64,000 nucleotides of DNA, taken from positions 4,032,001-4,096,000 of the forward strand of contig OZ255842.1 of NCBI GenBank assembly GCA_965277805.1. The letters are read 5' to 3'. A program made the translations under genes and the position numbers. Source of the DNA: Candidatus Lustribacter sp. (GTDB lineage: Bacteria > Vulcanimicrobiota > Vulcanimicrobiia > Vulcanimicrobiales > Vulcanimicrobiaceae). The notes under the pieces were generated by a model, which had not been told where the DNA came from, did not search any database, and was given only the letters and a program-made list of their open reading frames with translations. Below are positions 28,219 to 31,304 of this stretch, in pieces (the stretch's first letter is position 1; every line of letters begins with the position of its first letter).

Positions 28219-28809
28219 CTACGCGACGAGGTGGTCGTAGACGATGTTCGCGCGAGTGCGCAGCGTCGCGAGATCGCCGTCGTTGTCGATCGCGTAGGTT
28301 GCGCGGCGGCGCGCTTCGTAGGGGTCGATTTGCGCGCGCATGCGGTCGAGCACTGCCGCGCGGTCGATCCCGTCGCGTTGCATCACGCGCGCGATGCGCG
28401 CCTCCTCGGGCGCGAATACCACCACCGTCGCGTCGCACGTGCGCCAGTACTCGCCCTCGAACAGAAGCGGAATTACGTGCACCTCGAGCGCATCTGGCGG
28501 CACCTGTGCGACGAGCGCCCGGGCCAGCGCGCGCACGCGCGGATGCACGATTCCGTTGAGCACGGTACGCTCGGCCTCGTTCGCAAAGATGATGCTCGCG
28601 AGCGCCGCGCGATCGAGCGTTCCGTCGGGCGTGATAACCGACGGCCACCGCAACGCGATCTCGCCGAGACCGCGGCTGCCCGGGGCGACGGCTTCTCGCG
28701 CGAGCAGATCGGAGTCGATGATGAATGCACCGCGTTCGCGCCAGACATCCGCGACCGCGGTTTTGCCCGCACCGATGCCGCCGGTCAACCCGACGCTCAA
28801 CAAACTCAT
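28219..28809 (-). CDS. coaE: Dephospho-CoA kinase
   Basis: 'GLTGGIGAGKT', 'LDRAALA', 'HPRV', 'IPLLFE'. Confidence 0.93.
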   Translation of the reverse strand: MSLLSVGLTGGIGAGKTAVADVWRERGAFIIDSDLLAREAVAPGSRGLGEIALRWPSVITPDGTLDRAALASIIFANEAERTVLNGIVHPRVRALARALVAQVPPDALEVHVIPLLFEGEYWRTCDATVVVFAPEEARIARVMQRDGIDRAAVLDRMRAQIDPYEARRRATYAIDNDGDLATLRTRANIVYDHLVA

Positions 28810-28822
28810 CGCGCGGACAATT

Positions 28823-28854
28823 AAAAAAGGGAAGGCGATGTGCCTTCCCCTTTT
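28823..28854 (-). terminator. Rho-independent terminator downstream of rpsA (possibly bidirectional)
   Basis: GGGAAGGC/GCCTTCCC stem, flanked by A6 and T4 runs. Confidence 0.75.
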
Positions 28855-28876
28855 CGTTTGCGCTACGCGCCGTTTA

Positions 28877-30034
28877 TTAAACGGGTGAAGCGAGTTCCGT
28901 GCCCAGCGGGCTGAACGCATCTTCGGGAACGAACTCGGCAAGCTCGTCCGGCGAAACGTCGGCGACGTGCTGGATCGATCCGGTGATCCGGCGCGTGCCC
29001 TGGTTGATCGTGAGCAGCGTGACCTCGACGTCTTCGCCCGGCGAGTACTGTTTCGCCGTATCGAATTCGCCCTTCGGCACCATCGCGAGCACGCCCGGAA
29101 CGATCTCGACGAGGAGATAGTTCGGGGTGACCTTGACGACTTGCGCGATCAGCTTGTTGCCTTCGAACAAGGCTTCGGCGTGCTCGACCCACGGATCGGG
29201 CAACGCGTGCTTGAGCGAGAGCGAGACCTTCTTCGCATCGGGATCGAACTTCATCACTTCGACCGAAACCGTGTCGCCGATCTTGACGACTTCCGACGGA
29301 TGCTTGATCCGCGCGTACGAGAGTTCGGAGTTGTGGATGAGGCCGTCGATGCCGCCGAGGTCGACGAACGCGCCGAACTCCGCCAACCGGACGACGACGC
29401 CTTCGCGAATTTGGCCGACTTGCAGCGTGCCGAGCAGCTCTTGCTTCTTCTGGTTGAGTTCTTCTTCCAGAACTTGGCGCTGCGAGAGCACCACGCGATG
29501 CCGCTTGTGGTCGAGGTCGATGACCTTGAGCCGCAGCTTCTTCCCGACGAGTTCGTCGAGGTTGCCGACCGGCTGGCGACGGATCTGCGAGGCGGGCACG
29601 AAGCCGCGCATCCCGAGATCGACCAGCACGCCGCCCTTGACGACTTGGGTCACGGTCGCTTCGATCACTTCGTCGTGCTCGTGCGCTTCGATGACTTTTT
29701 CCCACGTCTTGAGTGCGCGGGCGCGGCGTTCGCTCAAATACAGTTGACCATCGTTCTCATCGATACGATGGATCATCACCTCGAGTTTATCGCCGACGCT
29801 GAGTTCTTTCGGCTCGATGATGAGCGAAAGCTCGCGGAAGGGGAGAATTCCCTCGGACTTACCGCCGATGTCGACGAGCAGTTCGTCCTGATACTTTGCA
29901 ACGATGACGCCGACGAGGACTTGGCCTTCGTCGAGAACCTTGAGGCTCTCTTCGTAGAGTCGCTGTTCGAGCGCGAGTTGGTCTTCTTCTTCTTCGATCG
30001 GTGCCGGCGTCTCCGGCGAGATGGTAGCAGAAAT
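28877..30034 (-). CDS. rpsA: 30S ribosomal protein S1 (4 S1 domains), probable ATT start
   Basis: S1 motifs 'LLVDIGGKSEG', 'GFVPASQI', 'FGAFVDLGGIDGLIH'; the first S1 domain lies upstream of the first GTG/ATG; ATT at 30034 follows AAAGAAG. Confidence 0.92.
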   Translation of the reverse strand: MSATISPETPAPIEEEEDQLALEQRLYEESLKVLDEGQVLVGVIVAKYQDELLVDIGGKSEGILPFRELSLIIEPKELSVGDKLEVMIHRIDENDGQLYLSERRARALKTWEKVIEAHEHDEVIEATVTQVVKGGVLVDLGMRGFVPASQIRRQPVGNLDELVGKKLRLKVIDLDHKRHRVVLSQRQVLEEELNQKKQELLGTLQVGQIREGVVVRLAEFGAFVDLGGIDGLIHNSELSYARIKHPSEVVKIGDTVSVEVMKFDPDAKKVSLSLKHALPDPWVEHAEALFEGNKLIAQVVKVTPNYLLVEIVPGVLAMVPKGEFDTAKQYSPGEDVEVTLLTINQGTRRITGSIQHVADVSPDELAEFVPEDAFSPLGTELASPV

Positions 30035-30061
30035 GGTGTGTGTGCTTCTTTCGTTTTGATT

Positions 30062-30877
30062 TTATTTTTGGCAGCCTCGGCACCACCAGGTACCGCGCTG
30101 ACCGAGAACCGTACGCACGATGGGTTTTCCGCATCGTCTGCACGGTTCGCCCAGCCGCCCGTAAACGTCCAGCTGGTTTTGGAACCCGCCCTTGAGCCCT
30201 TCGGCGTCGACGTAATCGTCGACGGACGTGCCCCGCGCCTCTATGGAGCGTTGCAAGACGTCGATGATCGCGCCGTGAAGCCGGCGGCGGGCCGGCCTCG
30301 TGACCTTCTGCGCGGGGCGGTTGGGACGAATCCCGGCCTCCCACAGAGCCTCGCACGCATAGATGTTTCCGACGCCCGAAATATGCTTTTGGTCGAGCAG
30401 AAACGTCTTGATCGGCGTTCGACGCCCGTCCAGCATACTCACAAAGGCCTCAGAGGTAAAGTCCTTCGAGAGCGGTTCCACCCCGCCGTCGGCATCCCAG
30501 ACCTCTTCGGCGGCAAGCAAGCGCATGCGGCCGAACTGGCGGACATCGGCAAAACACAGCCGCCAGCCGTCGGAAAACGTGAGGCGAATGTGCGTGTAGG
30601 GGTGCGGTTCCGAGACTTCCGGCGCCTGGACGATCAAGCGGCCGGTCATGCGCAGGTGCACCGTCAGTCGCCGGCCTGAGCCGAACTGGACGACGATGAA
30701 CTTCCCACGGCGGCCGACCGCCACGATGCGCTCGCCTCGCAGCGTCTCACGAAATGAGACGCCGGGCGGCGCCACGGCGATCTTGGCCATGCTGACCACA
30801 ACGTCCGCGACCGTCTTGCCGACAACCGCATTCGCGAGGCCGCGCGCGATTGTCTCGACTTCCGGGAGCTCGGGCAC
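30062..30877 (-). CDS. mutM: Formamidopyrimidine-DNA glycosylase
   Basis: N-terminal PELPEV, 'HLRMTG', 'GVGNIYA', C-terminal zinc finger. Confidence 0.96.
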   Translation of the reverse strand: MPELPEVETIARGLANAVVGKTVADVVVSMAKIAVAPPGVSFRETLRGERIVAVGRRGKFIVVQFGSGRRLTVHLRMTGRLIVQAPEVSEPHPYTHIRLTFSDGWRLCFADVRQFGRMRLLAAEEVWDADGGVEPLSKDFTSEAFVSMLDGRRTPIKTFLLDQKHISGVGNIYACEALWEAGIRPNRPAQKVTRPARRRLHGAIIDVLQRSIEARGTSVDDYVDAEGLKGGFQNQLDVYGRLGEPCRRCGKPIVRTVLGQRGTWWCRGCQK

Positions 30878-30914
30878 CGGTTTCTAGAACCCGCTCCGCG
30901 CCGGAATCGTTGCG

Positions 30915-31304
30915 CTAATCGGGGCAGTCGGCGGGGGCGCCGCTCAAGCGCTCGGCTGCCATCAGGGCACGGCACTGGTTGATCGTCAGCAGCAAGATGC
31001 GCGCCGCGATCTGCTGCCCGCTGATGGTGCGATACGTGACCCGGGCCAGCAGGCCGGGCGGGACGCGCGTGACCTCCGCGCCGTTGATTTTGCCGTCGCT
31101 GCTTTCGACACCGTGAAAATCAGCCGGAACGATGAAGCCCATCGTCTGGTGGGTCTTGCCGTTGAACACCCGGATCCGGCCCGGCTGCGCGAGCTGCACG
31201 GTGCCCGAAAAGACCAGCGTCTGTGCCGATTCGGCTTTGCACACGAGGCACGGGATCGGGGTGTTCGGCGGCAGCGGAACGTTCTGGGCGAAGAGGCTAA
31301 TCAT
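30915..31304 (-). CDS. Hypothetical protein
   Basis: Fills the operon gap and overlaps the upstream stop; has a CxxC; no recognisable family. Confidence 0.55.
   Translation of the reverse strand: MISLFAQNVPLPPNTPIPCLVCKAESAQTLVFSGTVQLAQPGRIRVFNGKTHQTMGFIVPADFHGVESSDGKINGAEVTRVPPGLLARVTYRTISGQQIAARILLLTINQCRALMAAERLSGAPADCPD

Follow-up and report, generated by a model that had tools for sequence, protein, structure and literature searches.

In Escherichia coli, infC, encoding initiation factor 3 (IF3), starts at AUU, and IF3 regulates its own synthesis. Conserved near-cognate starts of infC (AUU, AUA or AUC) occur in many bacteria, and pcnB is a further known gene with such a start. Translation of E. 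coli rpsA, encoding ribosomal protein S1, is also said, in work attributed to Skorski et al. 2006, to be autoregulated, free S1 repressing a structured leader that lacks a Shine-Dalgarno (SD) sequence. As far as the accessible parts of the sources go, a near-cognate ATA start of infC was shown for Flavobacterium johnsoniae (PMC7797042) and proposed for Deinococcus-Thermus (PMC2830850), and AUA was seen in Staphylococcus aureus (PMC13009471). According to the same parts, non-canonical starts of Deinococcus dnaA (ATC), rpsL (CTG) and infC (ATA) were confirmed by N-terminal proteomics (PMC2830850), and S. aureus cvfC1 (AUU) and ccpN (AUA) have conserved starts with an extended SD and about 10% of the output of AUG (PMC13009471). 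For Streptomyces, sigR is given in the accessible portion of one report as a GTC start repressed by IF3 (PMC5472188). More non-canonical starts may be tabulated in the supplements to PMC2830850 and PMC13009471. Here we describe rpsA in a 64-kb stretch of a Candidatus Lustribacter sp. genome (contig OZ255842.1, positions 4,032,001 to 4,096,000; "the window" below means this whole stretch, in whose numbering positions are given). The gene is very likely translated from a near-cognate AUU at 30034-30032 on the minus strand. A preliminary description of the window had proposed this start, and the proposal is now strongly supported by an ATT or ATC (ATY) in every relative of the order that was examined, by stop codons lying close upstream, by an SD-like stretch and by coding conservation that begins at the next codon. 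That description also knew of no earlier account of a link between S1 synthesis and initiation fidelity, in agreement with our search of the literature, supplementary tables not covered, which found no description of a near-cognate rpsA start or of start codons in this phylum.

The rpsA frame and its conserved ATT or ATC

The genome carrying the window (G000) is a single 5.53-Mb contig of 64% G+C. On the minus strand, the rpsA frame is open from the TAA at 30064-30062, which is the mutM stop codon and was correctly described as being in frame with rpsA, to the TAA at 28879-28877. The first in-frame ATG, GTG or TTG is the GTG at 29779-29777, and the next is the ATG at 29776-29774; the preliminary description was right that no canonical codon precedes this pair and wrong in its coordinates (29782 and 29779), each being three bases off. 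The features concerned are as follows.

30032..30034, minus strand: ATT, the proposed near-cognate start codon of rpsA (alignment of relatives)
30035..30044, minus strand: CACACACACC, the spacer between the SD-like stretch and the ATT (kept within the genus)
30045..30052, minus strand: GAAAGAAG, a weak SD-like stretch before the ATT (pairing with the 16S 3′ end of this genome)
29978..30031, minus strand: an acidic, Pro- and Ala-rich low-complexity extension between the rpsA start and the S1 helix (sequence)
29933..29977, minus strand: LALEQRLYEESLKVL, rpsA codons 20-34, the N-terminal helix (alignment to E. coli S1 from residue 7 onward)
29774..29779, minus strand: GTG then ATG, the first canonical in-frame codons of rpsA and the choice of a plain open reading frame (ORF) finder (ORF listing)
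28877..30034, minus strand: rpsA, the four-domain ribosomal protein bS1, 385 codons plus stop when counted from the ATT at 30034 (PF00575, phmmer)
30062..30877, minus strand: mutM, formamidopyrimidine-DNA glycosylase (Pfam PF01149, PF06831 and PF06827: Fapy_DNA_glyco, H2TH and zf-FPG)

The GTG at 29779 sits 85 codons inside conserved S1 sequence. Between 30081 and 29779 the sole canonical triplet in all three frames is a TTG at 29901, which is out of the rpsA frame and lies well inside conserved coding sequence. Given the codon usage of the genome's long ORFs, 85 coding codons free of ATG, GTG and TTG are expected with p = 0.0046. Of 4525 putative genes scanned across the genome, rpsA had the strongest coding signal ahead of its first canonical in-frame codon. 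As an Ile codon ATT is rare in this genome (0.65%, versus 4.5% for ATC), and the rpsA site is nonetheless ATT. Seven Val codons lie before 29779; an avoidance of GTG among them was seen by eye only, and no claim is made of it.

The S1 domain family PF00575 matches the rpsA product in four stretches (E 1.2e-50), and phmmer comparison with the S1 chains of solved structures gave E values of 1e-84 to 3e-88, the ribosome-entry chain aligning its residues 7-288 with query residues 25-303 (E 1.9e-84). Residue 25 of the product (RLYEESLK) corresponds to residue 7 of E. coli S1 (QLFEESLK), so the 85 codons before the GTG hold an acidic and proline-rich extension of 18 residues, then the N-terminal helix, then the greater part of domain 1, much as this segment had been read at first. 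In E. coli, the equivalent of the helix segment docks S1 onto the ribosome. The 85 codons are conserved as protein across the class (70-99% identity), and between relatives the extension ahead of the helix differs in length (14 to 58 codons) while staying in frame. No other gene in the genome matches S1 strongly; the runner-up (E 1e-11) lies in a 748-aa open frame, and rpsA is the principal S1 gene rather than a paralogue.

Several observations on S1 genes of relatives may be recorded here. In one public metagenome-assembled genome (L065), the rpsA extension carries a frameshift that leaves the ATC and SD intact but off the helix frame, and which may be an assembly indel. Several genomes of the window's family have a second S1-like gene of 39-51% identity that covers residues about 100-384 only, a match of which there is none in G000; one set of carriers comprises G090:C5:688711-689538, G144:C11, G154:C1, G148:C46, G051:C1 and G129:C83, and another G012:C1:1769496, G008:C24, G010:C190 and G016:C1:3726773. 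Among the best 120 hits, public gene calls for the S1 protein range from 331 to 457 aa with arbitrary starts, some extended into the mutM 3′ region and others cut into domain 1. For one relative (P0033), NCBI places the start at another ATC, nine codons upstream of the conserved Ile. Several public S1 proteins are named IspH reductase, apparently through annotation of an IspH-S1 fusion.

The start codon was compared in the window's family (f1) and a second family of the same order (f2), as well as in a sister family of the same class (f3). A first batch comprised 30 rpsA loci from 41 related genomes, a second the 80 best loci among 345 relatives in a public species collection, and a third 60 rpsA N-terminal regions from further f1 genomes. 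Together these hold 164 loci of the order, 154 of which were parsed automatically and gave, once merged and deduplicated, 136 distinct 123-nt contexts. Two loci (L012 in G015 and L027 in G036) come from unpublished genomes, and the conclusions are unchanged when they are removed.

In all 136 contexts the codon aligned to the window ATT is either ATC (92) or ATT (44), with no other codon found. By batch, the 24 f1 and f2 loci of the first gave 8 ATT and 16 ATC, f2 having ATC; the 80 loci of the second gave 41 ATT and 39 ATC (74 parsed automatically, 41 ATT and 33 ATC; six read by eye, ATC); and the 60 regions of the third gave 4 ATT and 56 ATC (42 parsed, 4 ATT and 38 ATC; the 18 read by eye were ATC without exception). 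In the sister family f3 the aligned codon is ATG in 6/6 loci, with N-termini such as MADT and MTDT versus ISTT and ITST, and an in-frame ATG candidate lies upstream of the helix in 19/19 informative loci among 20 from distant families of the phylum-level group (~40-45% identity). The preliminary description had asked for this comparison, naming ATG at the position in reads or close relatives as an observation that would speak against the AUU start; ATG at the aligned codon was confined to f3. In a FastTree phylogeny of 142 rows, inferred from about 360 coding nt that exclude the start region, the codon switches at least 14 times from ATT to ATC or back and once involves an ATG/ATY change, no other codon appearing. 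The AUU or AUC at the rpsA start is kept throughout f1, as far as these alignments reach, and is no accident of one genome. If this codon is the start, ATG would give the same protein, yet ATG is absent, and selection therefore appears to act on initiation strength.

The surroundings of the codon point the same way. Codons +1 to +3 are S/T, T and T with synonymous variation (TCT/TCC/TCA; ACA/ACC/ACG/ACT), and the triplets at -1 to -4 show no amino-acid conservation, being dominated by the purine-rich SD, with -4 a stop codon in six contexts; constraint at the protein level therefore begins exactly after the ATY. The nearest in-frame stop upstream lies at one codon in one of the 154 parsed loci, at two codons in another and at three codons in seven. 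The closest of these, in locus L017, reads TGA ACT ATC, and no canonical codon intervenes in any of the nine. Neither ATG, GTG nor TTG occurs between the upstream stop and the helix in 80/136 contexts. A canonical codon is found upstream only, mostly at least 12 codons away, in 32/136, and downstream in the remaining 24/136, as GTG at +8 in 14 and as TTG at +3 in all four f2 contexts. The TTG makes the f2 start ambiguous, and the secure claim is that for f1.

Initiation signals, IF3 and other near-cognate starts

The 16S 3′ end of the genome is the canonical CCUCCUUUCU (anti-SD). The SD-like stretch of the window pairs with it at -5.2 kcal/mol and a spacing of 9. In relatives, SD energies before the ATY range from -5.1 to -10.3 kcal/mol, mostly at 5-10 nt, with means of -7.2 kcal/mol where the codon is ATT (n = 42) and -8.0 where it is ATC (n = 40); the f3 genes with ATG average -10.5 (n = 6). 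Over 150 nt the leader has no significant fold (-41.6 kcal/mol, z = -0.50, 56/200 shuffles folding as well), consistent with the unstructured A/C-rich leader first described ahead of the in-frame ATT, and no Rfam element matched at E <= 1 across 29800-30500.

Among the tRNAs with a CAU anticodon that aragorn predicts in the genome, one is of the initiator type with a GGG/CCC anticodon stem, one is an elongator-type Met tRNA and one is a further tRNA; there is one tRNA-Ile(GAU), and no initiator-like tRNA reading AUY is present in the aragorn set. A special decoder tRNA for AUY was considered and rejected, the canonical CAU initiator being the only one present. A further aragorn prediction, labelled Ser with the anticodon ACT, is unusual.

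The infC gene of the same genome lies outside the window and starts at ATA (C1:3912135-3912137, plus strand), 8 nt after AGGAG and downstream of a hairpin followed by a T-run. In 30 parsed relatives (L111-L140) its start is ATA (16), ATC (5) or ATT (9), so that AUH is kept in 30/30, and at one locus a stop codon lies three codons upstream of the near-cognate start. The classical infC arrangement is thus intact here, an indirect indication that IF3-type discrimination against AUH is probably still in force.

We suggest that the purine-rich SD-like stretch, ~9 nt upstream of the AUU, would position the 30S subunit on the unstructured A/C-rich leader, and that the single ordinary initiator tRNA (anticodon CAU) would pair with AUU with a third-base mismatch, giving initiation with fMet. 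S1 would then begin Met-Ser-Ala-Thr and, with the Met probably removed, would read SATISPETPAP...; the tryptic peptide from Ser-2 of this long form is SATISPETPAPIEEEEDQLALEQR. By analogy with infC and other AUH starts, initiation at the AUU may be both inefficient and opposed by IF3. S1 output would accordingly be throttled, and would rise, in parallel with infC, when there is little free IF3 per 30S subunit. That S1 synthesis may be tied to IF3 and initiation fidelity, as the preliminary description proposed, is a reasonable reading, infC here also having a near-cognate start and the initiator tRNA being canonical. Between such regulatory coupling and a fixed throttle, however, sequence alone cannot distinguish.

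Other translation genes of the genome bear on this question. For rsfS, no canonical start was found over 105 codons of open frame (L223:506-508, minus strand; G000:C1:4912405-4912407). The aligned start in 30 loci (L287-L316) is CTG in 22 and ATG in five (all f2), with GTG, TTG and ATC occurring once each, and the conserved CTG is preceded by GGGAGA. In all eight genomes of the genus, the pth start (L222:313-315, plus strand; G000:C1:3891012-3891014) is an ATC or ATA that follows the upstream gene's stop by one to four codons, and 21/30 loci of the class (L257-L286), including all eight of the genus, have no canonical codon at least four codons before the GLGNPG motif. The gene upstream of pth has an alanine- and proline-rich end that, by look only, resembles L25/Ctc. 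A third gene, valS, has an apparent ATT start (L221:314-316, plus strand; G000:C1:1465513-1465515), three codons after a TAA and with no SD. It was rejected as a fourth conserved case: the ATT is found in the three closest genomes only, the other 27 loci of the set (L227-L256) showing GTG or ATG candidates, and elsewhere in the genus a GTG lies upstream. Taken together, these alignments suggest that translation genes of f1 use near-cognate starts more widely.

Such use lends itself to the reading that the AUY start is real but without regulatory meaning, the lineage simply tolerating near-cognate starts through drift or as a fixed throttle. That rsfS, pth and valS also lack canonical starts here favors it, and the restriction of the valS ATT to the three closest genomes indicates that near-cognate starts can arise recently. 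Against it, ATG never occurs in the 136 contexts despite at least 14 third-base changes, the AUH start of infC is retained at every parsed locus, implying that discrimination still operates, and candidates among the 4525 putative genes are few. We consider a start devoid of regulatory meaning unlikely.

A broader scheme would place S1 (AUY), IF3 (AUA), peptidyl-tRNA hydrolase (AUC/AUA) and RsfS (CUG) together in an "IF3-titration regulon" of f1. Under this scheme, the level of free IF3 relative to 30S subunits would set the synthesis of exchangeable factors that ride on or rescue ribosomes, through discrimination at the start codon alone, and selection for coupling to IF3 would keep the S1 start codon weak. 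We regard a regulon of this kind as doubtful, though conceivable.

Alternative starts, coupling to mutM and points against an AUU start

Translation of S1 could begin at another non-canonical codon close by, such as the ATC at 30022-30020 (the fifth codon) or one just upstream of the ATT. The ATC at +4 is near-cognate too, Ile stands at +4 in 29/136 contexts and at +5 in 53/136, and the NCBI call of P0033 uses the ATC nine codons upstream. Position 0 alone, however, is invariant; the SD spacing of 5-10 nt suits position 0 and not +4 or +5; and the conservation of +1 to +3 with synonymous change means that those residues are translated. At L017, moreover, the stop one codon upstream leaves only ACT or ATC as the start. 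A nearby start of this kind is very unlikely.

S1 could also be made by ribosomes that have translated mutM, either by reinitiation 27 nt past the mutM stop or by readthrough of its TAA to yield a MutM-S1 fusion, in which case the start codon would matter little. In the window the mutM stop is indeed in frame, 27 nt upstream of the ATT; mutM lies upstream of rpsA on the same strand in 109/110 loci; and an RNA-library contig (X19, 29697-30386) bridges the mutM 3′ region into rpsA, although RNA-library contigs may contain DNA. The read data are assembled contigs of four runs, which carry no start, level or strand information, so that they allow no conclusion on rpsA transcription. In tblastn, the end of the mutM hit and the beginning of the rpsA hit lie 17 to 319 nt apart, a measure that overstates the intergenic distance because it includes part of the variable N-terminal extension, and the ATY is kept throughout. 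Loci differ in their nearest in-frame stop, so that a frame shared with the mutM stop is not a general arrangement, and an SD is conserved before the ATY. The short, conserved distance from stop to start that goes with termination-reinitiation is not seen between mutM and rpsA. Furthermore, the ribosome flux of a low-abundance repair enzyme cannot supply a ribosomal protein. We hold synthesis by way of mutM to be highly improbable.

The GTG at 29779 or the ATG at 29776 would give a 300-aa S1 with neither the helix nor the greater part of domain 1, and the upstream frame would go untranslated. A plain ORF finder reports exactly this 300-aa frame, starting at the GTG, and public calls of S1 lengths are as arbitrary as noted above. 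The upstream codons, however, are 70-99% identical across the class and match solved S1 structures over the helix and domain 1, indels in the extension stay in frame, the coding potential upstream is the highest of such cases in the genome, and no SD precedes the GTG, all of which leaves a start there with only the slightest probability. Finally, nothing was found in favor of the ATT being a sequencing or assembly error for ATG, a prospect that is negligible given ATT or ATC in 136 distinct contexts from independent assemblies and given that a DNA contig (X1, 29742-30204) and X19 both cover the start site, none of the differences listed for the covering contigs falling at 30032-30034 (97 further differences lie outside that list).

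Several points weigh against initiation at the AUU itself. The evidence for it is comparative. The genus of the window has the weakest SD of the set (-5.2 kcal/mol), and no sigma-70-like promoter was found in 28700-31000 (0.4 expected). That so abundant a protein should be made from the weakest class of start runs against intuition and calls for compensation, for instance in mRNA level. A near-cognate start is not compelled, to judge from the aligned contexts, where the TTG at +3 of f2 or the GTG at +8 (14 contexts) exists. In addition, a pattern of ATT and ATC only, taken by itself, also fits purifying selection on an ordinary Ile residue, and supports selection on a start codon solely in combination with the absence of an upstream start.

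Just past the rpsA stop, a terminator-like hairpin with a T-run (28829-28849, plus strand) lies inside the start region of the next ORF downstream on the minus strand, which carries a GGIGAGKT P-loop.

Implications and comparison with known systems

If initiation at AUY is correct, one of the most abundant bacterial proteins is made from the weakest class of start codon through the whole history of a large soil and peat family, challenging the rule that near-cognate starts mark low-abundance regulators. The family would also offer a natural test of whether IF3 co-regulates ribosome-associated factors other than itself. Gene callers would be mis-starting rpsA throughout the genomes of the phylum, and likewise rsfS and pth; with rpsA mis-started, the S1 sequences used for annotation, phylogeny or structure work in this group are truncated or falsely extended.

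Like infC, rpsA of this lineage has a lineage-conserved AUH start after an SD and a product that binds the 30S subunit, and infC of the same genome starts at ATA. Unlike infC, its product is stoichiometric, very abundant and not IF3, and the start-codon route would provide no feedback loop through the gene's own product. E. coli rpsA is the same gene and also has an atypical initiation region that presumably limits S1 output. The rpsA of the window differs from it in having an SD-like stretch, no significant leader structure and no Rfam match, the atypical element here being the start codon. An SD-less, multi-hairpin rpsA leader of the E. coli type was accordingly rejected for this locus, given the SD-like stretch, the fold z of -0.50 and the lack of an Rfam match at E <= 1. 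As in the Deinococcus cases, so far as the accessible part of that report describes them, a housekeeping or ribosomal gene has a lineage-conserved near-cognate start that gene callers misannotate. The phylum, gene and codon are different, and the Deinococcus starts have peptide evidence, whereas that for rpsA is comparative (PMC2830850). With S. aureus cvfC1 and ccpN, again as given in the accessible portion of their source, rpsA shares a conserved AUH start whose selection is directed by an SD; those genes, in contrast, are low-abundance regulators with an extended SD, and the SD of rpsA is ordinary to weak (PMC13009471). rpsA joins the genes with conserved near-cognate starts as a new, highly expressed case.

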